Origin: an uncultured Candidatus Rokubacteria bacterium
Lineage (GTDB): Bacteria > Methylomirabilota > Methylomirabilia > Rokubacteriales > DASRDR01
NCBI GenBank assembly: GCA_963805625.1
Contig: CAWDVE010000018.1
Span: forward strand, 1-64,000
Length of the DNA stretch: 64,000 nt
Reading direction: 5' to 3'
Shown: positions 32,566-53,016 of the stretch, one piece after another
How positions within the stretch are numbered: position 1 is the stretch's first letter
How the letters are laid out: each line of letters begins with the position of its first letter
Position numbers and translations under genes: made by a program
Notes under the pieces: generated by a model
Database searches by the model: none
Told to the model about the DNA's origin: nothing
Seen by the model: the letters and a program-made list of their open reading frames with translations, nothing else

Positions 32566-32967
<402 letters not shown>

Positions 32968-33039
32968 TTTTCCTTTTATCGCGCATACTTACTCAGCGGC
33001 GCCTTACAGCGGCGCGGCGACGTACAGAACCCCCACACA

Positions 33040-33063
33040 GAAAGCGCGCGATGGCCGCTTTCT
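33040..33063. terminator. Short hairpin downstream of the FAD oxidoreductase gene
   Basis: GAAAGCG...CGCTTTC inverted repeat. Confidence 0.35.
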
Positions 33064-33088
33064 AGTGTTCCGTGATTGATCGCCCGGC

Positions 33089-34504
33089 TCACGCGCTTGG
33101 CTTGATGTTCTGGTTCAGTCGAAACAGGTTTGTCGGATCGTATCTAGTCTTCAAGGCGACGAGGCGGTTGTAGTTGGCGGCGCCATAGCTGTTGCGCACC
33201 AGCTCCTCCCCCTCCTCGCCGAGGCCCGCGAAGTTGAGATAAGCGCGGCCGCCGGAATGATGCTTCATGTTGCCCCAGAAGGCGCGCGACCAGGACAGGT
33301 TCCGCTCGTCGTCGGCCGGATTTTTCCAGATCGAATCGATGCTCAGCATGTAGCGCATGTTGCGCTCGCCGAAGGCGGTTGCGTTGCCGGCCACCCGGCC
33401 GACGGCGCCGCCCAGATACCACACCGAGCAGAGCGTCAGGTCGGAGGGGCGATCGGCGGCGCGTGGCGCGATCTCGTCGATCATCCGGTCGTCCAGGCCG
33501 TTCAGATAGAGCGATTTGAAGTAGGCGCGATGAACGCCCTTGGGGAACAGCCCATCGTAGAGCTTCTGAACGCTGCAGTAGGGCATCCGGCCGCTGATAT
33601 CCAGTACCGGCGTGGCCAATTCGCGCAGGGGCCTGACGGCTTGTTCGCCCTCGTGCGCCGGGCCCGCCCACACCCCGGCCAGAGCCATGACCCGCGCGCC
33701 CCAGGTCTCCTCGGGATATTCCGGATCCGTGGGGATCGTGGAGAATTCGACCAGCGTTCCGCCGATCTCGTCGGGCGCGGTTGCCATGAAATCGCGCCAG
33801 CCCTTCATCACCTGGGCGGCGTCCTCACTCCGGTAGATCACGCCCAGGAACATCACTTCCGGCCCGATCGGATGCAGCTGGAACTCGAACGAGGTGACGA
33901 CGCCGAAATTACCGCCGCCACCGCGCACGGCCCAGTAGAGATCGCTGTTCTCGGCCGCGCTGGCGGTGCGAAGCTGGCCGTCCGCGGTGACGATGTCGAC
34001 TGACAGGACGTTGTCGAGGCTGAGGCCATGCTTGCCGCGCAGCCAGCCGAGGCCACCGGCGAGCGTCAGCCCGCCCACGCCCGTCGCCGAGACGACGCCG
34101 CCCGGCGTTGCCAGACCATAGAGCTGCGCCTCGCGGTCGAAATCGCCCCAGGTTGCGCCGCCTTGCACCCACGCCCGCCGCGCCTTGGGATCGACCCGGA
34201 CCGCGTTCATCCGTGACAGATCGATCATGATGCCGCCGTCGCACGAACCGCTGCCCGCTGAGTTGTGGCCGCCGCACCGCACCGCAGCGAGAAGCCCGTT
34301 TTCGCGCGCGAAATTGACCGCGTGGACGGTGTCGGCGGTGCCGTTGCAGCGGGCGATGAGGGCCGGCTTCTTGTCGAACATGGCATTCCAGATGAGCCGC
34401 GCACTGTCATAGCCTTCGTCACCTGGTTGGAGCAGTTCGCCGCGCAGGTTGGCACGCAACGCTTTCGCCGCCGCTTCAAGACTAGTGGCTTGTCGGTTTG
34501 TCAT
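33089..34504 (-). CDS. FAD-binding oxidoreductase, berberine-bridge/6-HDNO-like
   Basis: RCGGHN (flavinylation His), GVGGLTLAGGLGW, WAVRGGGGNFGVVT, YLNF...KTRYDPTNLFRLNQNI. Confidence 0.92.
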   Translation of the reverse strand: MTNRQATSLEAAAKALRANLRGELLQPGDEGYDSARLIWNAMFDKKPALIARCNGTADTVHAVNFARENGLLAAVRCGGHNSAGSGSCDGGIMIDLSRMNAVRVDPKARRAWVQGGATWGDFDREAQLYGLATPGGVVSATGVGGLTLAGGLGWLRGKHGLSLDNVLSVDIVTADGQLRTASAAENSDLYWAVRGGGGNFGVVTSFEFQLHPIGPEVMFLGVIYRSEDAAQVMKGWRDFMATAPDEIGGTLVEFSTIPTDPEYPEETWGARVMALAGVWAGPAHEGEQAVRPLRELATPVLDISGRMPYCSVQKLYDGLFPKGVHRAYFKSLYLNGLDDRMIDEIAPRAADRPSDLTLCSVWYLGGAVGRVAGNATAFGERNMRYMLSIDSIWKNPADDERNLSWSRAFWGNMKHHSGGRAYLNFAGLGEEGEELVRNSYGAANYNRLVALKTRYDPTNLFRLNQNIKPSA

Positions 34505-34603
34505 GCTTGTCTCCCTTGCTAGCCGCGCGGCAACGCAGGCGGCGCGGCAAATCCGAAATCATTGACGGTACAAGACTATGGTTGAGCCCGAGCCTTCGTA
34601 AGA

Positions 34604-34636
34604 GGCAGAATGGACACTAACGGGGCAAATGTGACA
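34604..34636. promoter_or_regulatory. Putative GlxA/AraC-type tandem binding sites
   Basis: GGCAGAATGGACA and GGCAAATGTGACA at 20-bp pitch in the divergent intergenic region. Confidence 0.4.
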
Positions 34637-34658
34637 CCGCGCTGACCTGGGAGGATCG

Positions 34659-35735
34659 ATGGCGAGATCCGAAGCGAAGTTGCCGCGAATCTGTCTGCTC
34701 GCCGCGGCGGAAACCTCTCCCGCGGTGCTCTATGGCCTCTATGACGTCCTGAGTACGGCAGGGGCGGTCTATTCCGAACTGACCAGCGGGAATCCGGCGG
34801 AGAAGGTGCTCGACGTTAGGATCGTGGCCGCCACCACCGATCCGTTCCGCTGCTTCGGCGGTGTGATGGTCGAACCGCATGACGCCATCGACCGGCTACA
34901 TGAAACCGACGTCGCGATCGTGTGCGATATGTATACGCCAATCGACACGCCGCCGCGCGGGCGCTACGGGCGAGAGATCGAGTGGCTGAACCGAATCTAC
35001 GCCAAGGGCGCCATTCTCGGTTCCGTCTGCTCGGGCTCCCTGGTGCTCGCCGAGGCGGGCCTTCTGGACGGACTGCAGGCAGCCGGACATTGGGCCTATC
35101 GCGAATTGTTTCGTGAGCACTATCCGAAGGTGAAGTTTCGGGTGGATTCGATCTTGAGCGTTGCCGGTGAGCAAGACCGGATCGTGACAGCGGGGGGCGT
35201 GACCGCCTGGCAGGAACTGGCGCTCTACCTGATTGCCCGGTTTTGCGGGCCTCAGCATGCGATCAGGACGGCCAAGATCCACATCCTGTCCGATCACTCG
35301 GACGGCCAGTTGCCCTTTGCCGTGATCACACCGCGTGTGGGGAACACCGACGCTGTCATCGCCGACTGCCAACACTGGATCGCTGAGAATTACGCGTGCC
35401 AGAATCCTGTTGCCAGCATGATTGCTCACTCGGGCCTCAAGCCCCGCACCTTCGCCCGGCGGTTTCTGGCGGCGACCGGCTTTCATCCGGTGGACTATGT
35501 GCACGCGGTTCGCATGGAGGAGGCGAAACAACGCCTGGAAACCGATACCGTCAGCGTGGAGGAAATTGGCCACATCGTGGGCTATGAGGATCCCACCTTC
35601 TTTCGCCGCCTGTTCAAGCGCAAGGTCGGCCTGACCCTTGCGGCATACCGGCGAAAATTCTCCAAGATCGCGGCGATCGGACATTCGGGGACGCAGTATT
35701 CAACTCCGGCGCCTCGGCGGCGGAATTTCGGATGA
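34659..35735 (+). CDS. GlxA-family regulator (DJ-1/PfpI + AraC HTH)
   Basis: SVCSGSLVLAEAGLLDG, TAGG, RTFARRF, VGYEDPTFFRRLFKR. Confidence 0.92.
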   Translation: MARSEAKLPRICLLAAAETSPAVLYGLYDVLSTAGAVYSELTSGNPAEKVLDVRIVAATTDPFRCFGGVMVEPHDAIDRLHETDVAIVCDMYTPIDTPPRGRYGREIEWLNRIYAKGAILGSVCSGSLVLAEAGLLDGLQAAGHWAYRELFREHYPKVKFRVDSILSVAGEQDRIVTAGGVTAWQELALYLIARFCGPQHAIRTAKIHILSDHSDGQLPFAVITPRVGNTDAVIADCQHWIAENYACQNPVASMIAHSGLKPRTFARRFLAATGFHPVDYVHAVRMEEAKQRLETDTVSVEEIGHIVGYEDPTFFRRLFKRKVGLTLAAYRRKFSKIAAIGHSGTQYSTPAPRRRNFG

Positions 35736-36037
35736 CGGCCCATGGGACCAACCTGCCCGCCACCCGGGTCGTCCGAGGAACACCTTGACCTAGGCTGAAC
35801 GAATTCCTACATTCTAGCTCGCCACCGATTGCCCACCCCGTCTGGAGCTCGCCGGCCGCGAAGAGATTCCGGCCTCGCCGCCAGTCGGCGTCAGGACTCC
35901 CTCGGTGATCAGACGCTCAGAGCCACCGGGCCAGTTGTCGGGCAGGCCAGAGGCCATCGCCGCCGAGCCCCGCGCTTATGGGGCAGGCTATGTCACCGAT
36001 AAGCCAACTGACGTAAGTCCGCACCCGTACAGAATCC

Positions 36038-36089
36038 GGGGCAACTCGTCGATATCCCGGCTTACAGGCTCCCTCTGGCGCGTTTCTTT
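36038..36089 (+). repeat. rnpB 3'-end repeat copy 2 (core 36056-36081)
   Basis: 26/26 match to copy 1; ~50-bp extended similarity to copy 3. Confidence 0.9.
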
Positions 36090-37213
36090 GTCACGCCGAC
36101 ATCCGAAGCATGAGCTCCTCGGCAGCGTCCGCCCCGGTCCTTGCCGGGCGGCCCGCGGGGCGCTAGACTCCGGCCACCCTAGTGACGCGCCAGCTTGGCG
36201 ACGAGGGCGTCGCGGCCGCCCAGGCGGCGATCGAGCTGGATCGACAGCTTGCCGAGCTCGACCGCCTCGCTGTGCACTGATCGTCCGTGGCCAGATCTAT
36301 CAGTGCCACTGCTAGACCGAACAGGCGAGGCAGGGGTGGAACCGGATTCGCCCACGGTGCTACGGTTTCTCGTCTAACCAGGAGCCACGGACATCACGAT
36401 ACCGGAGCCTCGAGTACTTCGACCCGGGGAGCCCGCCCCGGATTTCACGCTGCCCACCGTCGAGCGCGAGGGCACGGTCTCACTGGCTGACTACCGAGGG
36501 CGGAGCTCCCTGCTCCTCGCCTTCTTCCGGGGGATCTACTGTCCGTTCTGCCGGCGGCAGATCGCCAAGCTAGGACTCTCACGAGACAAGCTGCTGTCGG
36601 TGGGCGTCGAAACTCTCGCCGTCGTGGCGAGTAACCTCGAGCGCACCCGTCTGTACTTCCGGTACCGGCCGACGGGTGTGCCCTTGGCCGTCGATCCGGC
36701 GCTCATCACCCATCGCGCCTTCGGGGTCTCACAAGTCCCGGTGACCCCAGAGTTGAGGGAAGCGCTTCGGACCTTCCGGACCGACGTGATGGGCGAGCTG
36801 CCGCAGCCGCTGCCGATCAGGGACGCGGTGAAGGTGCTCGATGCGCGGGACGGTTTCGAGCCCACCGAGACCGACACCCGAGAGGACCAGGAGCATGGTT
36901 TCTTGGACGTGGGGCAGTTCCTGGTGGACCGCAGAGGCATCGTACGCTGGGCCAACCTGGAGCTCGCCAGCGACGGCCCTGCAGGGCTCGGTAAGTTCCC
37001 CAGCGAGGAAGAGCTCCTCGCGCTGGCGCGGACGCGCGGCTCCTAGCGCGCCGCCGATGCCGTCGACGTCCGGGACGACAGTGGCTGGAGCGCCGAGTGT
37101 CGGCCCTTATGAGGGGCCAGATCCCATCCATAAGCGGATCGATGCAGGTACGCGCCCTGCATGGAATTGGGGCACATTCGTCGATATCTCGGCTTACAGG
37201 CTCCCTCTGGCGC
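36056..37213. mobile_element. Integrated unit B at rnpB (single redoxin gene)
   Basis: Bounded by repeat copies 2 and 3; 1132-bp spacing. Confidence 0.6.
36393..37046 (+). CDS. AhpC/TSA (peroxiredoxin-like) redoxin lacking a canonical start codon
   Basis: Frame open from the stop at 36375: PGEPAPDFTLP...SLADYRG...FFRGIYCPFCRRQI...FLVDRRGIVRW; AGGAG SD at 36380, ATC at 36393. Confidence 0.8.
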   Translation: MTIPEPRVLRPGEPAPDFTLPTVEREGTVSLADYRGRSSLLLAFFRGIYCPFCRRQIAKLGLSRDKLLSVGVETLAVVASNLERTRLYFRYRPTGVPLAVDPALITHRAFGVSQVPVTPELREALRTFRTDVMGELPQPLPIRDAVKVLDARDGFEPTETDTREDQEHGFLDVGQFLVDRRGIVRWANLELASDGPAGLGKFPSEEELLALARTRGS

Positions 37214-37221
37214 GTTTCTTT
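37169..37221 (+). repeat. rnpB 3'-end repeat copy 3 (core 37188-37213)
   Basis: 25/26 match to copy 1. Confidence 0.9.
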
Positions 37222-37460
37222 CATTGGGCATTTGCAACGCACTACTTCGTCGCCGGTAATCGACGTACAGAACCCCGGGATGTAAAGCCCGCTTATTCAC
37301 GAGGCCGTCCCCACCCCTGCGCGCGGCGCGCGAGCCAGCGTTCGAGCCGTCCCCGAGGGAACCGGACACCCGCCCCGGACGTGACGCCGTGCTCAATTGG
37401 AAATCCGTGCCCCTTCCTCGGCTCACGTGAGTTTCCAGGGTAGCCAGAGCATGGCCTCGC

Positions 37461-37559
37461 TCAGCGCCGCGTCCGTGATTCGGTGTAGACCACCATCGAT
37501 TTGATGTCCTTATGCCCGAGCGACTCCTTCACCCACTCGCGCGGCGAGAGGAACCGCCG
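37461..37559 (-). pseudogene. Tyrosine recombinase/integrase C-terminal relic
   Basis: WVKESLGHKDIKSMVVYTE = LGHxxIxxTxxYT motif carrying the catalytic Tyr; upstream part absent. Confidence 0.7.
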
Positions 37560-37622: not shown

Positions 37623-40049
37623 ATGACGACGCGGTTGATCGGTGCGCGCATCTCGCGAAACGAGGATCCGCGGCTCCTCCGGGGGCTGGGCTCGTTCGTC
37701 GACGACATCGAGCCGCGCGGGGTGCTTCACGCCGCGTGCCTCCGCTCCCCGCATGCGCACGCGCGGGTCCTCGCGATCGATACCGCCCGGGCCCGCGCGC
37801 TGCCGGGTGTGCACCTGGTCCTGACCGCTGCCGAGCTCGGCGAGCTCAACCAGCCGTCGCCGCTCCTGATTCCGCACCCGGGCCTGTCCCATCCGAGGAC
37901 CCAGCGGCCGCTCGCGGTCGACCAGGTCCGCTACACGGGCGAGCTCGTCGCCTTCGTGGTGGCCGATGACCGCTACGTGGCCGAGGACGCCGCCGGCCTG
38001 ATCGACGTCGCCTACGAGTCCCTGCCGGTGGTGACCGATCTGGAGGCGGCCGGCAATCCCGGAGGACCGCTCGTCCACGCGGACGTGCCAGCGAACCGCG
38101 CGGCGCGCCTCGTTCAGCAGGTGGGAGACCCGGACGCGGCGTTCAGGCGGGCGGCCCACGTTCTGCAGGAGCGGCTCTATATCGAGCGGAGCTGCGGCAG
38201 CCCGATCGAGGCGCGCGGCGTGGTCGCGGAGTACGACGCCCGGACCGGGCAGCTCCGGGTGTGGAGCTCGACGCAGGCGCCGCTGCCCATCAAGAACGGC
38301 CTCGCCCGGATCTTCGGCCTGCCCGAATTCAAGGTCGAGGTCGTCGTGCCGGACACCGGGGGCGGCTTCGGCACAAAGATCATGCTGTTCTACCCCGAGG
38401 AGATCCTGGTCCCGTACGCGGCGATGCGGCTCGGGCGAGCCGTGAAGTGGACCGAGGACCGCCTCGAGCACTTCGTCAGCGCCAGCCACGAGCGCGGGCA
38501 GCTCCACGACGTCGAGGTCGCCTGTGACGCGGCCGGCCGGATCCTCGGACTCCGGGACCGGTTCCGCCACGACGCCGGGGCCTACACGCCGTATGGCATC
38601 GTCATCCCGCTCATCACTTCGACCCAGCTCCCCGGCCAGTACCGGATCCGGCACTACCAGGTCGAGTTCGACGTGCTCTACACGAACAAGGTGATGACGA
38701 CCCCCTACCGCGGCGCCGGGCGCCCCCACGGCGCCTTCGTCATGGAGCGGGTCATCGGCCTCATCGCTCGCGAGCTCGGGCTCGAGCCCGCCGAGGTGCG
38801 CCGCCGAAACCTCATCCAGCCGGACGAGTTCCCGTGGGACGTGGGGCTTACGTTCCAGGACGGCGGACCGACGCGCTACGACAGCGGGAACTACCCCGCG
38901 GGCCTCGAGATGGCGCTCGAGGCGATCGGCGCGCGAGACTTCCGGGCCCGGCAGGCGGCGGCCCGCGCCGAGGGGCGATACCTCGGCCTCGGCGTCGCCT
39001 GCTACGTCGAGGGGACCGGGATCGGGCCCTACGAGGGCGCCCACGTACGGGTCGAGCCGAGCGGGCGGATCTTCGTGGCGACTGGCCTCACGACGCAGGG
39101 CCAAGGCCACCAGACGACCTTCGCTCAGATCGCCGCCGAGGCGCTCGGGTGCTCGCCGGCCGACGTGACGGTGGTGACCGGCGACACGGGGCGATTCAAC
39201 TGGGGCGCGGGAACGTTCGCGAGCCGCGCGCTGGTGACGAGCGGCAACGCGGTGGCGGCGGCGGCCCGCAAGGTCCGCGACAAGGCGCTCCACCTCGCGG
39301 GCGAGCTGCTCGAGGCCTCGCCGGGCGACATCGAGCTGGTCGACGGCGCTGCCCGGGTCAAGGGGGTGCCCGGACGCGAGCTCACGCTCGGAGCCCTGGC
39401 CACGGTGGCCAACCCGATCCGCTACGCCTACGGGAAGGAGGCGGCGGAGTCGGCGCTCCGGCTCGTCAAGCCTCGCCGCGGCGCCGTCCTCCGCGACGAC
39501 GAGGAACCGGGGCTCGAGGCGCGCGGCTACTACGCGCCGCCGCAGGCGACCTTCGCGAGCGGCTGCCACGCGGCGATCGTCGAGGTGGACGTCGAGACCG
39601 GCGAGGTCACGTTCGAGAAGTATGTCGTCCAGCATGACTGCGGGACCATCGTGAACCCGACGATCGTCGAGGGACAGATCCACGGCGGCGTCGCCCAGGG
39701 CATCGGGGGTGCGCTCTACGAGAAGCTCGCGTACGACGAGCACGGGCAGCTTCTTGCCGGGAGCTTCATGGACTTCCTCATGCCCACAGCCGCGGAGATC
39801 CCCGACATCACCGTCGTTCACCTGGAGACGCCGTCCCCGTTGAACCCGCTGGGCGTCAAGGGGGTGGGCGAGGCCGGGGCCATCCCGGTCCCCGCGCTGG
39901 TGGCCGAGGCGGTGGACGACGCGCTCGCTCCCTTCGGCGTACGGGTGCGCGAGATGCCGCTCAACCCGACCCGGATCCGGGAGCTGGTCGAGCAAGCCAC
40001 CGCCGGTGCCGGCGGACGCGCGTCGATCGGCCGGCGCGCTGGACCCTGA
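37623..40049 (+). CDS. Molybdenum hydroxylase large subunit (xanthine dehydrogenase/CoxL-like; candidate uracil/thymine dehydrogenase)
   Basis: EDPRLLRG.G.FVDD, GGGFGTK, PYRGAGRP, QGQGHQT, GQIHGGVAQG, KGVGEAG. Confidence 0.9.
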   Translation: MTTRLIGARISRNEDPRLLRGLGSFVDDIEPRGVLHAACLRSPHAHARVLAIDTARARALPGVHLVLTAAELGELNQPSPLLIPHPGLSHPRTQRPLAVDQVRYTGELVAFVVADDRYVAEDAAGLIDVAYESLPVVTDLEAAGNPGGPLVHADVPANRAARLVQQVGDPDAAFRRAAHVLQERLYIERSCGSPIEARGVVAEYDARTGQLRVWSSTQAPLPIKNGLARIFGLPEFKVEVVVPDTGGGFGTKIMLFYPEEILVPYAAMRLGRAVKWTEDRLEHFVSASHERGQLHDVEVACDAAGRILGLRDRFRHDAGAYTPYGIVIPLITSTQLPGQYRIRHYQVEFDVLYTNKVMTTPYRGAGRPHGAFVMERVIGLIARELGLEPAEVRRRNLIQPDEFPWDVGLTFQDGGPTRYDSGNYPAGLEMALEAIGARDFRARQAAARAEGRYLGLGVACYVEGTGIGPYEGAHVRVEPSGRIFVATGLTTQGQGHQTTFAQIAAEALGCSPADVTVVTGDTGRFNWGAGTFASRALVTSGNAVAAAARKVRDKALHLAGELLEASPGDIELVDGAARVKGVPGRELTLGALATVANPIRYAYGKEAAESALRLVKPRRGAVLRDDEEPGLEARGYYAPPQATFASGCHAAIVEVDVETGEVTFEKYVVQHDCGTIVNPTIVEGQIHGGVAQGIGGALYEKLAYDEHGQLLAGSFMDFLMPTAAEIPDITVVHLETPSPLNPLGVKGVGEAGAIPVPALVAEAVDDALAPFGVRVREMPLNPTRIRELVEQATAGAGGRASIGRRAGP

Positions 40050-41023
40050 TGCAGCCCGTGACGCGGCCACGCCCTGGCGGGAGCGCCCGGCTCCGATCCG
40101 GACTGAGGGCCGTCCGCGTGAGTCGGTGTGTCCGCGATCGGATCGACGCGTGGTGTCGAGCCGTGGTGCTCGGGGTCCAGCGTCGCGCCTGTCATCTCAC
40201 CGTTGATGACGGACCGCTCCTGATTCTCTCGACACCGGACGTACCGCTTGCGCCGAATGCCCTCGCGGTCGACGTGGCGCCCCACGTCACGCTGGGGGAC
40301 GCCGGCTTCCGAATTGGCCAGCTCGTCGCGCTGGGGGCGAGCGCGCCGCCCGACCGTGACGCCGATTGGCTCGTCACCTTCGGGGCGGCGTCGACCTGGG
40401 AGCCGCGCCCCCGCGTCCACCGGGTCGTCCTATGCGACCTGGTCGATCGGTTGCGGGCCGCGCGCGCCACCGTCATCGCCGACGGCGCAGAGGAGTCACT
40501 CCTCCCGCTCCTCTGGGTGTCGGAGTCCGACGTGGCTGGGCTCCGGCCGGGTGTCGTCGAGACGGCGGGTATCGCGGCGCGGCTCCTCTTGGACGCGGCG
40601 ATCCGGCGTGATGCGGCCTCCCTGGCCCGGGCGGCCCGCGGTCTCGCGGGGCTCGGGCCCGGGTTGACCCCATCGGGAGACGATCTCCTCGCCGGTTTCG
40701 CCGCGGCCTGGATCCTGGTCGGTGAAGCCCGCGGTCTCGATCGCGTGGCTCGCGAGCGCGTGACGGAGGCCCTCTTCGCGGGAGCCGAGCGCCGCGCGTC
40801 GGCGCTCGGGCGAGTCTGGCTCGAGCACGCCCTCCGGGGCGAGCTCCTCGAGCCGATGACCCGGTTCGTCGCCGCCTTCCTCGCCGCGGAGCCTCGCGAC
40901 CTCGGCGCGGCCGTGCGCGGCGCGCTCGCGGTTGGATCTTCGTCCGGGACCGACTGGATGGTGGGATTCGTTCTCGGAGCCGTAGCAACCCTCGATCGAG
41001 TGACGCGGAATCAGCCATGGTGA
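40049..41023 (+). CDS. DUF2877/YlbF (AllH)-like protein
   Basis: GLGPGLTPSGDD and VGSSSGTD motifs; precedes FdrA- and YlbE-like genes; start may be GTG 40118. Confidence 0.8.
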   Translation: MQPVTRPRPGGSARLRSGLRAVRVSRCVRDRIDAWCRAVVLGVQRRACHLTVDDGPLLILSTPDVPLAPNALAVDVAPHVTLGDAGFRIGQLVALGASAPPDRDADWLVTFGAASTWEPRPRVHRVVLCDLVDRLRAARATVIADGAEESLLPLLWVSESDVAGLRPGVVETAGIAARLLLDAAIRRDAASLARAARGLAGLGPGLTPSGDDLLAGFAAAWILVGEARGLDRVARERVTEALFAGAERRASALGRVWLEHALRGELLEPMTRFVAAFLAAEPRDLGAAVRGALAVGSSSGTDWMVGFVLGAVATLDRVTRNQPW

Positions 41024-42471
41024 CGCGGGGCAGGGTGCGGTCCGACACCTTCATCGACTCGGTGGCGCTCATGCAGGTCACGGAACGCGTCCGGGCGCTC
41101 CCCGGCGTCAGGGCGGCCGCCCTGGTGATGGCGACGGACCTGAACCGCCGGCTGCTCGACGAGACCGACCTCCTCCCCGCTGAGGCCAAGCGGGCCGGAT
41201 CGGCCGACCTCGTCATCACGGTGCGCGCGGAGACCGCCACCGCGGCGGACGCCGCTCTCGGTCAGGCCGAGGGATTCCTCGCCGCGCACCGGGGCGACCA
41301 GGGCCCGCACCGGAGCGAGCCGCCGCGCTCGATCGTCAGCTCGGCTCGCCGGCTGCCGGGGGCCAACGTCGCCCTGGTCTCGGTTCCCGGAGCCTATGCG
41401 ACGGCCGAGGCCCACCAGGCGCTCTCGGCCGGACTCCACGTGTTCTTGTTCAGCGATGGCGTGACGCTGGCCGACGAGATCGCGCTCAAGAAACGGGCCG
41501 AGACACGCGGGCTGCTCGTCATGGGACCGGAGTGCGGGACGAGTTTCCTGAACGGCGTGGGGCTCGGCTTCGCGAATCGCGTCCGGCAGGGACACGTCGG
41601 GCTGGTCGCGGCGTCCGGGACCGGACTCCAGGAGGTCGCGAGCCTGATCCACCGGCTGGGCGCGGGAGTCTCGCAGGGCATCGGTACCGGTGGGCGAGAC
41701 CTCCACGAAGCCGTGGGCGGGCTCGCCACGCTCCAGGTCCTGTCCTGGCTGGCCCGGGATCCCGAGACACACGTGATCGGACTCGTCTCGAAGGCCCCGT
41801 CGGCTGCCGTGGCCGAGCGGGTGCTGAAGGCCGCCGGCGCGTCCGGCAAGCCCGTGGTGGCGTACCTGCCCGGCTGGCGCGGGGCGACTCCGGCCGGTGT
41901 GCTGAGCGTGGCGACGCTCGAGGCGGCCGCGCTCGGGTGCGTCCGGGCGCTCGGGCGCAAGAGGCCGGGCTTCGACCGGCAGCGCGGGCGACGTCCGGGG
42001 CGCCCCCGCCCGGGCCAGGTGCTCGGCCTCTTCACGGGCGGCACGCTGTGTGACGAGGCGCGGACGATCGTCGGTGCTGCCGCGCGGGAGTTCATCGACT
42101 TCGGCGCCTCGGACTACACAGGGGGTCGGCCGCATCCGATCATCGACCCGAGTCTCCGGAACGCGGCCCTGGCGCGCGCCGGGAGCGATCGAAAGGTGGG
42201 AGTGCTGCTGATAGACGTGATCCTCGGCGACGGCGCCCATCCGGACCCAGCCGGCGCGCTCGCCGCCGCCATCGGCGAGGCGCGGACCCGCGCCCATCGG
42301 GGGCGCCGGACGCTCGAGGTCGTCGCGCACGTGGTCGGGACCGACGAGGATCCCCAGGGGCTCGCGAAGCAGGAAGGGGCGCTCCGGCGCGCGGGTGCCC
42401 GAGTCTGCCCGACGAACCGCCTGGCCGCCGAGCTGGCGCGAGACCTCGTAGGAGGACGCCGTGGCCGCTGA
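41017..42471 (+). CDS. fdrA: FdrA (AllF)-like protein, acyl-CoA synthetase alpha-like fold
   Basis: DSVALM, SVPGAYA, FSDGV, MGPECGT, ASGTGLQEV, GTGGRDL, GGTLCDEA, GRPHPIIDP. Confidence 0.88.
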   Translation: MVTRGRVRSDTFIDSVALMQVTERVRALPGVRAAALVMATDLNRRLLDETDLLPAEAKRAGSADLVITVRAETATAADAALGQAEGFLAAHRGDQGPHRSEPPRSIVSSARRLPGANVALVSVPGAYATAEAHQALSAGLHVFLFSDGVTLADEIALKKRAETRGLLVMGPECGTSFLNGVGLGFANRVRQGHVGLVAASGTGLQEVASLIHRLGAGVSQGIGTGGRDLHEAVGGLATLQVLSWLARDPETHVIGLVSKAPSAAVAERVLKAAGASGKPVVAYLPGWRGATPAGVLSVATLEAAALGCVRALGRKRPGFDRQRGRRPGRPRPGQVLGLFTGGTLCDEARTIVGAAAREFIDFGASDYTGGRPHPIIDPSLRNAALARAGSDRKVGVLLIDVILGDGAHPDPAGALAAAIGEARTRAHRGRRTLEVVAHVVGTDEDPQGLAKQEGALRRAGARVCPTNRLAAELARDLVGGRRGR

Positions 42472-43867
42472 GGGCGGGCTATTCGGCGCGGAGCTCAGGG
42501 TCGTCAGTGCCGGGGTCGATCTCTTCGCCGACGCGCTCGCCGCCCGCGGCGTCGAGGTCAGCCGCGTGGACTGGCGCCCGCCGGTCTCCGGCACGGCATC
42601 GACTCTCTGGCGAGACGAGGTCGACGCCGCCAACCGCGAGGCGCTCCGGCGACTCAGCGCCGCCCAGCCCGTCCTGATCGACGTCCGTCCGGCCCTCGAG
42701 GTCGTGCCCGGGATGACGCCGACGACGCTGCTCCACGCGGGGCCCCCGCTCCCGTGGGCGCGGATGAGCGGGCCGGTGCGGGGCGCCGTCATCGGGGCGC
42801 TTCTCTACGAGCGCCTCGCCGAGACGCCCGAGGAGGCCGAGCAGCTCGCTGCGTCGGGCGCCCTCGCGTTCGATCCCTGCCACCATCACGGCGCGGTCGG
42901 GCCGATGGCCGGGATCACGACGGCGCGCATGCCGGTCCTCGTGGTCGAGAACCGGACCAACGGCAATCGGAGCTACGCCACCCTGAACGAGGGGCTCGGC
43001 AAGGCGCTTCGCTACGGCGCCTTCGCGCCCGACGTCATCGAGCGGCTCCGGTGGTTCGAGGCGATCCTCGGACCGGCGCTCAGCGAGGTGCTCCGACGGA
43101 TCGGGGGTGTCGACATCCGGAGCCTGATCGCCCAGGCCGTCCAGATGGGAGACGAGTGCCACAACCGGAACCGGGCCGCCTCCGCGCTCCTCATCAAGAC
43201 GCTGGCGCCTCACGTGGCCGCCCTCGACCTCCCGCCGGCGGAGCGCGAGCGCATCCTCACCTTCGCGGCCGGGAATGACCACTTCTTCCTGAACGTGGGC
43301 ATGGCAGCGTGCAAGGCGGCGCTCGACGCCGCCCACGGCGTCCCCCGGAGCAGCATGGTGACGGTGATGGCGCGCAACGGCACCGAGTTCGGCATCCGCG
43401 TGAGCGGGCTCGGCGACCGGTGGTTCACCGGCCCGTCCGGGACGCCAGTCGGGCTCTACTTCGCGGGGTTCAGCGGGGAGGACGCCAACCCCGACATGGG
43501 CGACAGCGCGATCACCGAGACGGCCGGCCTCGGCGCCTTCGCGATGGCCGGCGCGCCGGCCATCGTCCAGTTCGTGGGCGGAACCCCGGCCGACGCGCTG
43601 GGCTACACTCGGCGCATGTACGAGATCACGCTCGGCGAGAGCGAGGCCTACCGGCTGCCGGCGCTCGACTTCCGGGGGACGCCGACCGGGATCGACGTCA
43701 GGCTCGTGCTCCAGACCGGGATCCTGCCCCAGATCAACACGGGCATCGCACACCGCCGCCCGGGGATCGGTCAGATCGGGGCCGGTCTCGTCAATCCGCC
43801 CCTCGCGTGCTTCGAGGCGGCCGGCCGAGCGCTGGCAGCCGAGCTGGCCCGAACGAGCCAGGCGTGA
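42461..43867 (+). CDS. DUF1116/YlbE (AllG)-like protein
   Basis: VDWRPP, LHAGPP, PCHHHGAVGPMAG, MGDECHNRN, ARNGTEFG, DMGDSAITE, INTGIAH. Confidence 0.88.
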   Translation: MAAEGGLFGAELRVVSAGVDLFADALAARGVEVSRVDWRPPVSGTASTLWRDEVDAANREALRRLSAAQPVLIDVRPALEVVPGMTPTTLLHAGPPLPWARMSGPVRGAVIGALLYERLAETPEEAEQLAASGALAFDPCHHHGAVGPMAGITTARMPVLVVENRTNGNRSYATLNEGLGKALRYGAFAPDVIERLRWFEAILGPALSEVLRRIGGVDIRSLIAQAVQMGDECHNRNRAASALLIKTLAPHVAALDLPPAERERILTFAAGNDHFFLNVGMAACKAALDAAHGVPRSSMVTVMARNGTEFGIRVSGLGDRWFTGPSGTPVGLYFAGFSGEDANPDMGDSAITETAGLGAFAMAGAPAIVQFVGGTPADALGYTRRMYEITLGESEAYRLPALDFRGTPTGIDVRLVLQTGILPQINTGIAHRRPGIGQIGAGLVNPPLACFEAAGRALAAELARTSQA

Positions 43868-43878
43868 GGGCAGGGGGC

Positions 43879-44703
43879 GTGAGCGCGCTCCGCGCCGCGG
43901 AGGGGGCCGCGCCGGCTCCCACACTGCCGGTCCGGCGGTGGCTCTCGTCATTCGCGGTGGCGGGGGCCCTCGTCCTTGCGTGGGAGGGGAGCAAGGCGCT
44001 GTTCGCGATTCCGCGGTACAAGCTTCCCCACGTCCACGAGATCCTCGGCGAGTTCGTCCGGGAGGGCGCGGACGGCACGCCCTGGCTCCTGATCATGGCC
44101 CACAACGCCGGGTACACGGCGCTCGAGAGCTTCGCCGGCTTCGCGCTCGGAGCCAGCACGGGCCTCGTCTTGGCCGTCCTCTTCGCGCGCTTCCGGCTGC
44201 TCGAGCGGGGCCTCTTGCCCTACGTGATGGTGTCCCAGACGGTGCCGATCCTCGCCGTCGCGCCGATGGTGGTCGTCTGGCTCGGCACCTCGTGGGTATC
44301 CAAGGCGGTGATCGCGGCGTACCTGACCTTCTTCCCGGTGACGGTCAACATGCTGCGGGGCCTCCGGGCGGTCGACCCGGACGCCCTCGCCCTCATGCGG
44401 GCGCTCGCCGCGACGCCGCGTCAGGTATTCCTGAAGCTCCGCTTCCCGGCCGCGCTTCCCTATCTCTTCACCGCGCTGCGGATCTCGGCGACCGCGAGCG
44501 TCGTCGGCGCGATCATCGGCGAGCTCCCGGTCGGGAGCCGGTTCGGGATGGGTGTGGTGATCATCAACGCGGCCCAGTACTACAACTGGCAGCCCGCGAA
44601 CCTCTGGGCGGCCATCCTGGTGTCGGCGCTCCTCGGGATCGCGTTCTACCACGCGGTCGCCGCCGTCGAGCGGCGCTGCATCCGCTGGCAGCCGACGACG
44701 TAG
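43879..44703 (+). CDS. NitT/TauT-family ABC permease
   Basis: QTVPILAVAP, FFPVTVN, KLRFPAALP, VGAIIGE. Confidence 0.88.
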   Translation: MSALRAAEGAAPAPTLPVRRWLSSFAVAGALVLAWEGSKALFAIPRYKLPHVHEILGEFVREGADGTPWLLIMAHNAGYTALESFAGFALGASTGLVLAVLFARFRLLERGLLPYVMVSQTVPILAVAPMVVVWLGTSWVSKAVIAAYLTFFPVTVNMLRGLRAVDPDALALMRALAATPRQVFLKLRFPAALPYLFTALRISATASVVGAIIGELPVGSRFGMGVVIINAAQYYNWQPANLWAAILVSALLGIAFYHAVAAVERRCIRWQPTT

Positions 44704-44706
44704 GCC

Positions 44707-45753
44707 GTGCCACACAGGACCCTGGCAGCGATTGTCCCGTTTACCAGGACCCGAGAGGCGAACGTCACGCGCTCCCGGTCGGCCGTTCTCCTCGCCCTGA
44801 CCCTGAGCCTCCTCGCTGCTCCGGTCGCCGCCCAGGTGCCGCAGTCCGGGCGAGTATCGCGGATCGGCCTTCTGTTCACGGGCTCGCCTCCACCCGAGTC
44901 CAATCGTGCGGTCGAGGCGTTACGACGCGGCCTCCGCGACCTCGGCTACGTGGAGGGTCGGACCATCCAGCTCGAGTACCGGTGGGCGCCGGAAGGTGGA
45001 TCCGATCAACTCCCTGGTCTGGCGGCTGAGTTGGTCCGTCTCGGGGTGGATGTCATCGTCGCCCAGACGAACGTCCACACCAGGGCGGCCAGCCAGGCGA
45101 CGTCGACGATTCCCATCGTGTTCGGCGCGGTCAGCGATCCGGTCGAGAGCGGTCTCGTGGCCGGCCTGGCCCGGCCGGGCGGGAACGTGACAGGGTCGAG
45201 CTTGCTAGCGCCGGAAGTCGTCAGGAAGCTGCTCGAGTTTCTCAAGGAAGCGGTTCCGGACGCCTCCCGGATCGCTGTTCTCGCAGATCCGGAGGGAAGC
45301 GTGCAGAGCCGGAAGGAGGCAGAGGCGGGGGCCCAGGTGCTGGGTCTGCGGCTTCATCGACTGGACGTGCGCGATCCGAGGGAGCTCGATCAGGCATTCC
45401 AGGCGGCCATGGCGGCCCGCGCCCAGGCCGTCATCACGATTCCGAGCTCCTTCTTTGCCCGACACCGCGGGCGCGTGGCGGAGCTCGCCCTGAAGAGCCG
45501 GCTCCCGGCGGTCTCCATCGAGACGGGATTCGCGGAGGCAGGCGGCCTCCTGTCCTATGGCCCGAACATTCCAGACAGCTTCCGGCGGGCTGCCCTCTAC
45601 GTCGACAAGATCCTCAAGGGCGCGAAGCCGGCCGACTTGCCCGTCGAGCAACCCACCAAGTTCGACCTGGTCCTCAACCTGAAGACCGCCAAGGCGCTCG
45701 GCCTGACGATCCCTCCCTCGGTTCTGGTGCGGGCAGATCGGGTGATCGAATGA
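44707..45753 (+). CDS. ABC substrate-binding protein (Tyr/Trp-binding DUF534-like family); start uncertain
   Basis: GLRDLGYVEG, DPVESGLV..LARPGGNVTG, GGLLSYG, YVDKILKGAKPADLPVEQPTKF. Confidence 0.88.
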   Translation: MPHRTLAAIVPFTRTREANVTRSRSAVLLALTLSLLAAPVAAQVPQSGRVSRIGLLFTGSPPPESNRAVEALRRGLRDLGYVEGRTIQLEYRWAPEGGSDQLPGLAAELVRLGVDVIVAQTNVHTRAASQATSTIPIVFGAVSDPVESGLVAGLARPGGNVTGSSLLAPEVVRKLLEFLKEAVPDASRIAVLADPEGSVQSRKEAEAGAQVLGLRLHRLDVRDPRELDQAFQAAMAARAQAVITIPSSFFARHRGRVAELALKSRLPAVSIETGFAEAGGLLSYGPNIPDSFRRAALYVDKILKGAKPADLPVEQPTKFDLVLNLKTAKALGLTIPPSVLVRADRVIE

Positions 45754-45791
45754 CCGTGCGCCTGCGTCTCAGGCGCGGGTAGGACGCACGC

Positions 45792-46595
45792 GTGGGGATC
45801 ATCGAGCTCGAGGGCGTGAGCAAGACGTATCCGAGCCCGGCTGGCGAGATGGAGGCGCTCCACGACGTCTCGTTCGCCGTCGAGCGCGGGGAGCTCGTCT
45901 CGCTGATCGGCCCGTCGGGATGCGGGAAGTCCACCCTCCTCCGGATCGTCGGCGACCTCGTCCCGCCATCGGGAGGCGCGGTCACCGTGAACGGGAAGCA
46001 CCCGGGGGCGGCGCGCCTCGACCGGGACTACGGTATCGTGTTCCAGGCGCCCGTGCTCTACGACTGGCGTACGGTGGAGGCCAACGTCGGCCTGCCGCTC
46101 GAGGTGATCGGCTGGCCGCGGCCGGAGCGCGACCAGCGGGTGCGGGCGCTCCTGCGGCTGGTCGGGCTCGACGCCTTCCGCCGCCATTATCCCTGGCAGC
46201 TCTCGGGCGGGATGCAGCAACGGGTCGCCATCGCGCGGGCGCTTGCGACCAATCCGGCGATCCTGCTCATGGACGAGCCGTTCGGAGCGCTCGACGAGAT
46301 GACGCGGGAGCGCCTGAACCTGGAGTTCCTGAACATCTGCCGCGAGACCGGCGCCACCGTGCTCTTCGTCACCCACAGCATCGCGGAGGCGGTCTTCCTC
46401 TCGACCCGCGTCGTCGTGCTAACCGCCCGACCCGGCCGCATCGAGCGGGTGGTGGACGTGGACCTTCCACAGCCCCGTAGCGAGAAGACGCGCGCTCTGC
46501 CGCGCTTCTTCGAGCTGGTCACTTTCGTGCGGGAGCACCTGGTCGAGGACCCCGCCCTGGCCGCCGCGGGGAGCCCCGCCAGCGAGGTTAGGTAG
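45792..46595 (+). CDS. NitT/TauT ABC ATPase
   Basis: GPSGCGKST, LSGGMQQR, MDEPFGALD, THSIAEAVFL. Confidence 0.92.
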   Translation: MGIIELEGVSKTYPSPAGEMEALHDVSFAVERGELVSLIGPSGCGKSTLLRIVGDLVPPSGGAVTVNGKHPGAARLDRDYGIVFQAPVLYDWRTVEANVGLPLEVIGWPRPERDQRVRALLRLVGLDAFRRHYPWQLSGGMQQRVAIARALATNPAILLMDEPFGALDEMTRERLNLEFLNICRETGATVLFVTHSIAEAVFLSTRVVVLTARPGRIERVVDVDLPQPRSEKTRALPRFFELVTFVREHLVEDPALAAAGSPASEVR

Positions 46596-46598
46596 CCG

Positions 46599-47369
46599 AT
46601 GCGACGCACGCGCGACTACGTGCCCGTCCTGGGGGTCTTCGCGCTCGGCCTCCTGTTGTGGGAGGGGTTCGTCTTCGCCTTCTCGATCGAGTTCTACCTC
46701 CTCCCGGCCCCGCACGTGATCGCGGCGACCCTCCGCCAGACCTACCCGGTCCTGCTGGAGGCGGCTCTCTACACGTTCGGCGAGGCGCTGGCCGGCTACG
46801 CCCTCGGCTGCGGTGGTGGCGTGCTGGTCGCCGCGCTGGCGAGCCGGTTCCCGGCGTTCGCCGGCGTCGTCCTTCCCTACGCGATCGCGTCGGCGTCGGT
46901 GCCGATCGTCGCGCTGGCGCCGCTGGCGATCGTCTGGTTCGGCATCGGCCCAGGCTCCAAGATCGCCATCGCGACCCTGATGACCTTCTTCCCGACCTTC
47001 GTCGGCACGCTCCGGGGCCTGCTCGGGGTCGACGCCCGGAGCCTCGAGCTGATGCGGAGCATCGCCGCCACCGAGTGGCAGGTGTTCTGGAAGCTCCGGC
47101 TCCCGCACAGCCTGCCTCACATGTTCACCGCGTTCCGGGCGTGCACCACGCTCGCGATGATCGGCGCGGTCGTGAGCGAGTTCTTCGGCGGCCCGATGAA
47201 GTCGCTCGGCGTGTACATCAAGAGCACGGCGAGTCTCTTCCAGACCCGCCAGTCGTGGTCGGCGATCCTCGTGGCCTGCGTGCTCGGGCTGACGTTCTAT
47301 CTGGCGGTGGCGCTCGTGGAGCGCCTCACCGTGCCGTGGCGAGTCGGCGAGGACCGCGCCGGCGCGTGA
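46599..47369 (+). CDS. NitT/TauT ABC permease
   Basis: VPIVALAPL, FFPTFV, KLRLPHSLP, IGAVVSE. Confidence 0.9.
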   Translation: MRRTRDYVPVLGVFALGLLLWEGFVFAFSIEFYLLPAPHVIAATLRQTYPVLLEAALYTFGEALAGYALGCGGGVLVAALASRFPAFAGVVLPYAIASASVPIVALAPLAIVWFGIGPGSKIAIATLMTFFPTFVGTLRGLLGVDARSLELMRSIAATEWQVFWKLRLPHSLPHMFTAFRACTTLAMIGAVVSEFFGGPMKSLGVYIKSTASLFQTRQSWSAILVACVLGLTFYLAVALVERLTVPWRVGEDRAGA

Positions 47370-47416
47370 ACGCCGCCCGGCGGTCGAAACTCCATGCGAT
47401 CTCGGAGGGACCGGCG

Positions 47417-48433
47417 ATGACGAGACAGAGGAACGGGACGACCTGGATCGCGCTGACCATGCTGGTACTGGCGGCGCTCCTGTGGCCGGGGTCGGCCGTG
47501 GCCCAGGCCACGAAGGTGCGGCTTCAGCTCAAGTGGGTGACCCAGGCCCAGTTCGCGGGCTACTACGCGGCCAAGCACCAGGGCCTCTATCGCGCCGAGA
47601 ACCTGGACGTCACCATCATCCCCGGCGGCCCGGACATCGTGCCCGAGCAGGTGGTGGCGGGCGGCGGGGCGGAGTTCGGGATCGACTGGTTGCCGAGTCT
47701 CCTGTCCGCGCGCGAGCAGGGCGTGCCGCTGGTCAACATCGGCCAGGTGTTCGCCTACAGCGGCATGCGGGAGCTCGCGTTCAAGACGTCCGGCATCAAG
47801 ACGCCGGCGGACCTCAAGGGCCGGAAGGTCGCGGTGTGGTTCGGCGGCAACGAGTTCGCCCTCCTGGCGACGCTCGCCAAGTACAAGCTCGACCCGCAGA
47901 AGGACCTCACGCTGGTCCAACAGCCGTTCGACATGAACCTCCTCCTCCAGAAGCAGGTCGACGCAGCGGCGGCCATGACCTACAACGAGTACAAGCAGGT
48001 GCTGGACGGGGGCGTGAAGCCGGAGGACCTGGTCGTCATCGACTTCAACGTCGAGGGCACAGCCATGCTCGAGGACGGGATCTTCGTCCGCGCGGACTGG
48101 CTCCGCGCCGGCAAGAACAAGGAGACCGCCGCCCGGTTCCTCCGGGCCTCCCTCAAGGGCTGGGAGTTCTGCCGGAACCAGGCGGCCGCCTGCGTAGACC
48201 TCGTGCTGAAGGAGAGCCCGGTGCTCGGCAAGCCGCACCAGGCCTGGATGATGGCCGAGATCAACAAGCTCGTCTGGGGCCCGCCCGCACCCAAGACGCC
48301 GGCGGGGAAGATGGACCCCGAGGCCTTCAAGCGCACCGCCGACATCGCGCTGAAGTTCGGCGTGATCAAGAAGCCCGCCGAGGCGTCCGCCTACACCCAC
48401 GAGATCTGGGAGCTGACCCGGACCCTCAAGTAG
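47417..48433 (+). CDS. NMT1/THI5-like substrate-binding protein (pyrimidine/nucleobase-type)
   Basis: Signal peptide; LQLKWVTQAQFAGYYAA, PGGPD, AMTYNE. Confidence 0.88.
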   Translation: MTRQRNGTTWIALTMLVLAALLWPGSAVAQATKVRLQLKWVTQAQFAGYYAAKHQGLYRAENLDVTIIPGGPDIVPEQVVAGGGAEFGIDWLPSLLSAREQGVPLVNIGQVFAYSGMRELAFKTSGIKTPADLKGRKVAVWFGGNEFALLATLAKYKLDPQKDLTLVQQPFDMNLLLQKQVDAAAAMTYNEYKQVLDGGVKPEDLVVIDFNVEGTAMLEDGIFVRADWLRAGKNKETAARFLRASLKGWEFCRNQAAACVDLVLKESPVLGKPHQAWMMAEINKLVWGPPAPKTPAGKMDPEAFKRTADIALKFGVIKKPAEASAYTHEIWELTRTLK

Positions 48434-48453
48434 GCTGACGGGGAGACCGGTTC

Positions 48454-49722
48454 ATGGACCTGGTGATCCGGGGCGCGCGCGTCGCGGGGTTCGATCGGCC
48501 GGTCGACATCGGCGTCCGCGACGGGCGCATCGCACGGCTCGCCCCGGGGCTGCACGACCGAGGGGCGGTCGAGATCGAGGCCGAGGGCCGGCTCGTGACG
48601 CCGGCCCTCGTCGAACCGCACCTCCACCTGGACGCCGTCCTCACCGAGGGCGAGCCGCGGTCCAACCGGAGCGGCTCACTGTTCGAGGGCATCGAGATCT
48701 GGGGCGAGCGCGTGAAGAGCCTCACGCCGGCAGACATCACGCGCCGGACCGACACGGCTCTCCGCTGGCTCCTGGCCCACGGCGTCACCCACCTCCGTGC
48801 CCACGTGGACGTGTGCGACCCGGCGCTCACGGCGGTGCGGGCGCTCCTCCAGGTCCGCGAGGCCTGGCGCGGCGTGATGGACATCCAGCTCGTCGCGTTC
48901 CCCCAGCAGGGGATCTACTCCTTCCCCGACGGCGAGAAGCTCATGATCGAGGCGCTCGAGCTCGGCGTGGACGTCGTGGGCGGCATCCCGCACTACGAGT
49001 GGACCCGGGAGTACGGGGAGCGGGACGTGAAGACCGCGCTGGCGCTGGCCGCACGCTACGGGCGGCCCGCCGACCTCCACTGCGACGAGACCGACGACGA
49101 CCAGAGCCGCTTCCTGGAGGTGCTCGCCGCCGAGACGATCCGCCTCGGCCTCCAGGGACGGGTGACGGCGAGCCATACCACCGCGATGCACTCCTACAAC
49201 AACGCCTACGCCTACAAGCTGATCCGTCTGGCGCGGGCCGCCGGCCTCCACTTCGTCACGAACCCGCTCGACAACTCCGTCCTCCAGGGGCGCTTCGACT
49301 CCTATCCGATCCGGCGCGGGTTCACGCGGGTGAAGGAGCTCCTCCGGGCTGGTGTGAACGTCGCCTTCGGCCACGACTCGATCATGGACCCCTGGTATCC
49401 GCTAGGGGTCGGCGACCCGGTCCAGTCCTGCTTCGTGATGGTCCACTACGGCCACATGTCAGGCCACGACGAGCTCGAGCAGATGCTCGACTTCGTGACG
49501 ACCCGGGCGGCCGAGTGCCTCGGCCTCCCGGACTACGGCCTCGCCGAGGGCCGCCGCGCAGACCTGGTCGTCTTCGACGCGCCGACGCCGGTCGACGCGG
49601 TGCGGACCCTGGCGGTCCGGACGGCGGTGGTGTCTCGCGGCCGCGTCGTCGCGCGGACCTCGCCGCCGCGGACCACGGTCACGCTGGACGGGCGCGAGTC
49701 GCCGGTGACGTTCCTGAGGTGA
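48454..49722 (+). CDS. codA: Cytosine deaminase
   Basis: EPHLHLD, NRSGSLFEGI, AFPQQG, GGIPHYE, HCDETDD, SHTTAMHSY, FGHDSIMDPWYPLG. Confidence 0.92.
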   Translation: MDLVIRGARVAGFDRPVDIGVRDGRIARLAPGLHDRGAVEIEAEGRLVTPALVEPHLHLDAVLTEGEPRSNRSGSLFEGIEIWGERVKSLTPADITRRTDTALRWLLAHGVTHLRAHVDVCDPALTAVRALLQVREAWRGVMDIQLVAFPQQGIYSFPDGEKLMIEALELGVDVVGGIPHYEWTREYGERDVKTALALAARYGRPADLHCDETDDDQSRFLEVLAAETIRLGLQGRVTASHTTAMHSYNNAYAYKLIRLARAAGLHFVTNPLDNSVLQGRFDSYPIRRGFTRVKELLRAGVNVAFGHDSIMDPWYPLGVGDPVQSCFVMVHYGHMSGHDELEQMLDFVTTRAAECLGLPDYGLAEGRRADLVVFDAPTPVDAVRTLAVRTAVVSRGRVVARTSPPRTTVTLDGRESPVTFLR

Positions 49723-49744
49723 GCGGGGTCGGGGGGATGGCCGA

Positions 49745-50071
49745 ATGATCTCGAGGCACTGGAAGGGCATCGCCAGGCCGGGGCAGGCAGAGCGGTACGT
49801 CGACCACCTCCGGCGCGACGTCTTCCCGAAGCTCGTGGCGATTCCCGGCTTCGTCCGCACCACGATCCTGAGGCGAGAGGTCGCCGACGGCACCGAGTTC
49901 CAGATCGTCACGGTGTGGCGCTCGCTGAGCGCCGTCGAGACGTTTGCCGGGAAGGATCCGGACGCCGCCGTCGTTCCGCCCATCGTCCAGGCGATGATGG
50001 CGGCCTATGATCGTGACGTCGTGCGCCACGAGCTGGCCGACAGCTACGAGCCCGTGGCACAGCCCCAGTGA
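49745..50071 (+). CDS. ABM-like dimeric alpha-beta barrel protein
   Basis: MISRHWKG, EFQIVTVW.SL, FAGKDPDAAVVP pattern. Confidence 0.7.
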   Translation: MISRHWKGIARPGQAERYVDHLRRDVFPKLVAIPGFVRTTILRREVADGTEFQIVTVWRSLSAVETFAGKDPDAAVVPPIVQAMMAAYDRDVVRHELADSYEPVAQPQ

Positions 50072-50883: not shown

Positions 50884-50911
50884 AGCCATCAACGAAAAGG
50901 AGGACACGACG

Positions 50912-51925: not shown

Positions 51926-51941
51926 GCCCGAGCCGGGGGAG

Positions 51942-52775: not shown

Positions 52776-52806
52776 CCCTGTAAGGATTTGAACTCTCCAC
52801 TCCTGC

Positions 52807-52883: not shown

Positions 52884-53016
52884 GGCATGGGTACTTGAAA
52901 GCGCTGCTTAGACAGACCGACAACGATAATGCGAGCACGGTCGGCGCGAAACAGGCCGGCGCGCCAAGGCGTCCTAGGTGAGCTATGATGGGCAGTCTGT
53001 CCGGGGAGAAACGACC

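Follow-up and report, generated by a model that had tools for sequence, protein, structure and literature searches.

Elements that have lost their integration and transfer genes, retain attL and attR and accrete in tandem at the 3' ends of genes are described as cis-mobilizable elements (CIMEs) of the ICESt1 type (PMC5704250). The Islander islands in tRNA and transfer-messenger RNA (tmRNA) genes show an intact RNA gene together with a displaced 3' fragment, a tyrosine integrase and tandem arrays (PMC4383910). Another structural RNA gene serves phage phiEf11, which integrates in ffs, the signal recognition particle RNA gene, with a 27-nt core close to its integrase (published 2025; PMC12540744). 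For the small microcin H47 island, which has no integrase of its own, excision and integration have been shown, with long imperfect repeats and host-supplied functions (PMC3191183). Here we describe an array at the 3' end of rnpB, the gene for RNase P RNA, in a 64,000-bp stretch (the window; positions 1 to 64,000 of contig CAWDVE010000018.1) from an uncultured Candidatus Rokubacteria bacterium with a 7.27-Mb genome. This source genome is referred to as G000, the other G numbers are compared genomes and the L numbers are compared loci or contigs. Behind rnpB follow three units, delimited by copies of its last 26 nucleotides (the cores), and conserved arms flank the cores on both sides. We propose that the array is probably a stack of three integrase-less remnants, similar to CIMEs and remobilised on occasion.

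The array resembles CIMEs in that it is stacked in tandem, lacks integration and transfer genes and apparently received its newcomers where the target gene ends. It differs in its target, rnpB, and in its autonomous relatives, which are tailed phages and small islands rather than integrative and conjugative or integrative and mobilizable elements. With the Islander type it shares displaced 3' fragments downstream of the intact RNA gene in the same orientation, the integrase family, tandem arrays and an integrase frame that runs into attP. In contrast to that type, the target RNA belongs to RNaseP_bact_a, the window units are without an integrase gene and the overlap appears to be 6 bp; since the target is not a tDNA, a tDNA-based island search would miss this site. 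The likeness to phiEf11 is an essential structural RNA gene other than tRNA or tmRNA as the site, and the likeness to the H47 island, a precedent for mobilisation in trans, is units without an integrase of their own. However, the RNA, host and integrase of phiEf11 are different, and both of those cases were established by experiment, whereas the array is known from sequence alone. Unlike an integron, the array has no sedentary integrase at its head or elsewhere in G000, and its units, set apart here without an attC model, are multi-gene and bounded by rnpB tails and arms rather than being single-gene attC cassettes. We found no title or abstract opening that names rnpB as an attachment site, although integration-site surveys, supplements and subscription papers may list it; in the accessible part of the ProBord report noncoding RNAs make up 13.5% of RNA targets and no rnpB or RNase P term occurs (PMC13626063). 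The mechanism itself is already known from tRNA and tmRNA islands and from CIMEs.

Repeats of the rnpB 3' End Delimit Three Units

The 3'-terminal 26-mer of the intact rnpB has three copies in the window, with zero, zero and one mismatch (table 1). No match of any kind was obtained in 100 shuffled controls, and the whole G000 genome contains only these three copies when up to five mismatches are allowed. The spacings of 3114 and 1132 bp are irregular, kilobase-scale and occupied by open reading frames (ORFs). An earlier reading of the window, made from the sequence only, had reported these copies and spacings correctly, and Pfam bears out the cargo it named, an oxidase and a regulator in unit 1 and a redoxin frame in unit 2. 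There are, however, three units and not two, the third being ~27 kb long and ending just past the window. The switch from core to accessory genome likewise falls at copy 1 as that reading had it: relatives align upstream and diverge past the core, the block shared by the genus returns only at contig position ~64,117-64,470, and the whole 31 kb behind rnpB is variable among relatives. Separate contigs assembled from sequencing runs agree with the window over portions of the array. A Pfam scan of 29 picked array ORFs, a set that does not comprise every possible frame, gave no hit to a family of integrases, relaxases or phage proteins, and tblastn detected integrase sequence in the array only as a 36-codon relic in unit 3. 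Two tRNA genes lie upstream of rnpB (22838-22909 and 31672-31744).

Table 1. Coordinates of rnpB, cores, arms and cargo in the window
Feature	Position	Strand	Remarks
rnpB, class A RNase P RNA (RNaseP_bact_a), target gene	32571..32966	+	Rfam, 288 bits; intact
Core copy 1, rnpB 3' end, predicted attL of unit 1	32942..32967	+	First 6 bases are the candidate crossover hexamer
Left arm of unit 1, U-tract and conserved motif (33022-33033) at +80 from core	32968..33050	+	Arm-only score against phage arm reached by 25/1000 shuffles
FAD-binding (BBE-type) oxidase, 471 aa, cargo	33089..34504	-	Pfam
DJ-1/PfpI plus AraC helix-turn-helix regulator, 358 aa, cargo	34659..35735	+	Pfam
Right arm of unit 1	35975..36055	+	Starts with 29-bp dyad (35975-36003) at -81 from core
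Core copy 2, junction of units 1 and 2	36056..36081	+	26/26; left-arm motif absent behind copy 2
Dispersed repeat of ~75 bp, then broken 3' gene piece	36127..36330	+	The gene of the piece precedes redoxin paralogs in relatives
AhpC/redoxin frame, cargo	36393..37046	+	ATC where paralogs of relatives have ATG
Right arm of unit 2	37106..37187	+	Perfect dyad at -82
Core copy 3	37188..37213	+	25/26; mismatch within the candidate crossover hexamer
Left arm of unit 3	37214..37300	+	Best match to phage attP arm; arm-only score reached by 0/1000 shuffles
Tyrosine-integrase relic, last 36 codons	37426..37532	-	Frame break at 37479
Unit-3 cargo, ~27 kb of catabolic and ABC-transport genes	37623..64000	+	Pfam; right arm just outside the window

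The recurrence of the 26-mer in related genomes, which the sequence-only reading had proposed to look for, is evident in five relatives (G003, G009, G011, G013, and G014) that carry same-contig arrays of 2-5 copies with differing cargo. At least two matches to the rnpB end are present in 10 of 14 genomes of the genus, a count that includes G004 (three copies sharing flanks and cargo, likely duplicate contigs) and G010 (overlapping contig ends). In the order, the core is matched exactly in 106 of 183 genomes, 20 of which have at least two matches, the copies of G004 and G010 again being included; a reversed-pattern control gave 0 matches in the 183 genomes. The six other genomes of the family that were examined have one copy each. 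The units, which are bounded by rnpB tails and arms, range from 0.76 to 27 kb and hold several genes as well as gene fragments. Relatives thus do not share one fixed, identical content: content varies, and integrases are linked to it. From these comparisons, integration at rnpB has likely recurred in this lineage, the gene acting as a landing site as tRNA genes usually do.

Two loci in relatives deserve mention on their own account. A 757-bp unit of G014 (L031:17774-18531) holds only a truncated integrase, and its right arm provides an in-frame GTG that opens a 194-aa frame consisting of the catalytic domain only. On a contig of G010 (C22), two rnpB tails 2.2 kb apart (L047:8205 and 10379) have 3' parts unlike the rnpB of G010 itself, and they may belong to an element from a foreign host, unless the contig is misbinned.

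Arms and a Candidate Crossover Site

Every core copy starts with the hexamer CCCGGC. In several element-side flanks TAA stands directly before the hexamer and TTA follows it as an imperfect dyad, which is how a tyrosine-recombinase core with a 6-bp overlap is laid out. We infer from this layout that the crossover occurs in or at the hexamer. Because the crossover would lie there, everything 3' of it would need a host-matched replacement. CCCGGC is complementary to an rnpB segment that starts at 32609, and we take it to belong to the P4 helix of RNase P RNA as one of its strands; the candidate crossover region hardly varies among bacterial RNase P RNAs.

Arm motifs stand at fixed offsets from the core (-82, -57, and +78 to +82) in the window units, in relatives and in phage-like loci. 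Right arms have a dyad at -82/-57; the motif of left arms, at +78 to +82, is a repeat of the host site's left half. In the 7.27-Mb genome the dyad occurs exactly three times, always at unit ends, against an expectation of 0.05, and an arm-profile search of G000, with a profile built partly from these places, hit the same three places only. A scan for promoters and terminators remained at chance level. When use of the host Xer/dif system was considered, no convincing site emerged from a search of G000 with one dif-like motif.

Copies 2 and 3 pair with the 5' strand of rnpB (helix P1) one base further than copy 1 does (16 vs. 15), as the sequence-only reading had observed, but its argument from this pairing for copy 1 as an element-supplied replacement end fails: copies 2 and 3 also precede element DNA, and in G013, where the 5' strand is the same, the pairing is 15 versus 15. 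G013 is the only fair two-copy comparison, the exact-match count stopping early at a G-U pair in G014, G009, and G002.

The Integrase Family, a Phage attP and a Filled and Empty Site

Full-length members of the integrase family linked to these sites are ~290-320 aa long and consist of a SAM-like N-terminal domain and a PF00589 catalytic domain. The R, K, H-x-x-R, H, and Y residues, presumably the catalytic set of Phage_integrase proteins, are conserved in our integrase alignment A1, as expected of tyrosine recombinases, and the closest named records are from Candidatus Rokubacteria and Methylomirabilota. The intact integrases next to rnpB that the sequence-only reading had proposed to look for exist in the phylum: a full-length gene lies directly behind a complete rnpB in G036, in a 4.6-kb element that includes an HTH_17 gene as a candidate directionality factor, and in G115. 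A profile search found full-length family members in 4 of 251 genomes of the phylum and in none of 15 genomes of the genus. G000 itself has no cognate integrase by this search, its best profile score being 150 bits as opposed to >240 for family members, and we take its two best tyrosine-recombinase hits to be XerC and XerD.

In IMG/VR, two contigs (L272 and L273; 38 and 50 kb) with identical sequence around the site carry a full-length integrase beside an rnpB tail. They came from an alignment query; screening viral contigs for the exact 26-mer or with one integrase gave nothing. Terminase and portal genes are present on L273, and no rnpB gene was found within the 20.9-kb stretch of it that was searched. 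Because the integrase lies beside an rnpB tail without an rnpB gene, we interpret L273 as having attP geometry. In the metagenomic contig L092, an integrase, an arm and a core are followed to the right of the core by 101 of 101 bases identical to the rnpB flank of G028, and the left side differs. These two loci represent a filled and an empty allele of one site, and they supply an empty-site allele of the kind that the sequence-only reading had proposed to look for, albeit none was seen within the source genus.

Remains of one integrase family face the core at the left ends of units, and they range from ~11 aa to near full length. They comprise 181 aa in G014, a frameshifted piece covering residues 96-285 in G002 and pieces of ~11-40 aa in G000, G003, G008, G009, and G010. 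This range of lengths points to progressive decay. In a tree of 35 rows, the ten rnpB-adjacent rows all fall into one 25-row clade (100/100), which is set apart from the two best recombinases of G000. The remaining members of the clade use other sites or sit on contigs too short to tell.

Several further loci of this family were recorded. At L192:716-1624 a full-length integrase with no rnpB tail nearby stands before an unrelated gene, and it probably uses another site. The integrase frame continues through the left arm and ends beside the core on the phage contig (L273:10001-10969) and in G036 (L052:1393-2361). In a phage-like subclade (L091:11256, L092:1293, and L094:~1260) the integrase is on the left and points to the core, opposite to the arrays of the genus. 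An attP-like site with a family integrase is also present at L193:2072, in a record titled Nitrospiraceae; its tail fits Rokubacterial rnpB types, and it may be a misbinned phage or reflect a wider host range.

Proposed Accretion and Decay of the Units

We propose that each of the three elements would have entered the rnpB 3' end by means of a phage-type tyrosine integrase and would later have lost it. The integrase would exchange strands in or at CCCGGC, the element supplying the host-matched last ~26-34 bases so that rnpB stays whole. Newcomers would insert at the rebuilt gene and push older units outward; unit 1 (3.1 kb) would thus be the youngest and unit 3 (27 kb) the oldest. Later deletions would remove the integrase and at times an arm or a core.

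Damage increases with distance from rnpB: unit 1 keeps its cores and arms, unit 2 is altered and the right core of unit 3 is gone. This gradient, together with integrase relics of every length, fits the CIME route of integration, decay and accretion. Unit 1 is the only window unit with matched cores and both arms, and it alone would have a candidate attL and attR of the kind that CIMEs keep. Unit 2 has no left-arm motif, the arm behind copy 2 scoring against the phage arm no better than a level reached by 531 of 1000 shuffles, and in its right core one base of the candidate crossover hexamer is altered. Its redoxin frame is likely a pseudogene or weakly started, because ATC replaces the ATG of the paralogs. 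Looser copies of the G+C-rich repeat at 36127-36203 in this unit number about ten in the rest of G000, and genomes of the genus contain many.

The tyrosine-recombinase relic that the sequence-only reading had noticed behind copy 3 is real: its 36 codons form two 18-aa pieces in different frames that match the C-terminus of the integrase of a relative at 78% and 83% identity (tblastn). At 64,040-64,118 of the contig stands a right arm of the kind that precedes copies 2 and 3, without a core after it. From this coreless arm it follows that unit 3 spans copy 3 to ~64,118, and a deletion appears to have taken away its right core; the distal attR that the sequence-only reading had proposed to look for past the window is therefore represented by its arm and lacks its core. 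A contig of a separate study reads through the junction with 0 differences. In the best-matching run, one contig has a different left neighbour at the junction, by eye like that of G013 and G010. The unit-3 cluster includes molybdopterin hydroxylase, AllG/AllH-like, hydantoinase, AtzD/TrzD-like and ABC genes, and it likely serves the breakdown of N-heterocycles.

By this account unit 1 would still be a substrate for the integrase of a visiting phage, and units 2 and 3 seem fixed in place. Some units without an integrase probably spread between species later on, either together with a neighbour in cis, in trans or through homologous recombination.

Several observations weigh against a history of stacking and decay. 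The rnpB-adjacent integrases do not form one clade, six changes being required within the 25-row clade, and the rnpB-specific integrase postulated by the sequence-only reading is not supported by the tree. Unit 1 is without any integrase relic, its cargo abutting the arm, which would also fit a cassette kept for a purpose. The unit-3 cargo has a host-like G+C of 0.71 and is present at other loci in relatives, its first 20 kb matching such loci in six of them at 83-92% identity. Neither the circular junctions suggested by the sequence-only reading nor an empty-site joint were seen in the contigs of 4 of 21 listed runs, contigs being prone to drop rare forms; the best-matching run may be the source sample. 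In the genus the last copy of each array precedes element-like DNA, and there is no true empty allele. Finally, integrase-less units shared between species diverge about half to a third as much as core genes, an outcome not predicted from passive decay alone.

Alternative Explanations

The low divergence of shared units suggests some spread between species after loss of the integrase. In an alternative that we find unlikely, the units are maintained small nonautonomous cassettes, made of two arms and cargo, that are repeatedly excised and re-inserted at rnpB by the integrases of visiting phages acting in trans. Arrays are common in the genus, none of whose 15 genomes yielded an intact integrase, and unit 1 itself has identical cores, both arms and no relic. 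The left arm and cargo of unit 1 likewise occupy position 1 behind rnpB in G012, where the cargo differs from that of G000 at 8 of 168 four-fold sites, against 18 of 119 in a core gene (pooled counts of cargo versus core, 9/184 vs. 32/176; Fisher p 9e-5). Integrase-less ends are also shared across G003, G009, G013, and G014 at 86-95% identity overall: an arm-cargo junction is common to G009, G013, and G014 (92-94%), and an end consisting of an arm plus a small gene is common to G013 and G003 (95%), with four-fold divergence of 5/44 against 77/233 in a core gene. Nevertheless, the G012 contig stops inside unit 1 and its arm is identical at only 134 of 147 positions. The cargo of unit 1 also occurs without arms at other loci, once in G008, between insertion sequence (IS)-type genes, and twice in G009 (92-96% identity), and because these armless copies show similarly low four-fold divergence, low divergence is not specific to att-bounded units. 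In the window, two units out of three have damage to a core or an arm, no circle was present in the contigs of the 4 runs and the integrase relics of all lengths favour decay. Thus, of the sequence-only reading, the att cores of an integrase family that targets rnpB, the tandem accretion and the variable content stand, and decaying remnants are more likely than a family of trans-mobilised cassettes.

A more far-reaching idea, which we likewise hold to be doubtful, is that a Rokubacterial phage-integrase family crosses over in the catalytic-core helix of RNase P RNA and that rnpB acts in this genus as a gene-capture platform, at which integrase-less elements of ~85-bp arms and cargo are excised and stacked anew by the integrases of visiting phages. 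If true, this would be an integron-like system with a phage-borne recombinase that moves metabolic genes between species.

It is improbable that the att sites are merely old scars and that the present variation and sharing stem from homologous recombination and IS activity at a hotspot between rnpB and the conserved genes downstream, with no further site-specific events. Cargo order is indeed shuffled, and cargo partly deleted, between relatives, some junctions are without cores, and units of G009 and G014 contain genes of IS and resolvase types. However, the arm motifs of the family stand at fixed offsets in units of different origin, full-length integrases are still found at rnpB in the order and on phages, and such a history would account for the spread of the units but not for their origin.

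Local duplication, terminator repeats of the Escherichia coli type or an assembly artefact are extremely improbable sources of the copies, even though each copy ends in a U-tract able to end transcription: the repeats downstream of rnpB in E. coli are short, with a fixed period of ~113 bp and no genes between, whereas the array has irregular kilobase spacing with genes between, its flanks are element arms and not duplicates of the rnpB-downstream region, the same geometry recurs with integrases in relatives and phages, separate run contigs match the window, and the phage attP and the filled and empty pair contradict all three.

Implications

We favor stacked, integrase-less remnants as the explanation of the array. 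The RNase P RNA gene here joins the short list of structural RNA genes that serve as attachment sites, and the case adds a phage attP, a filled and empty pair, mapped arms and a candidate crossover. Island finders built on fragments of tRNA and tmRNA genes would overlook such sites. Because the candidate crossover region is nearly invariant among bacteria, the integrase could be a broad-range insertion tool that preserves the target gene. For this uncultured lineage, the case defines a hotspot at which genes are exchanged and points to a candidate temperate phage.

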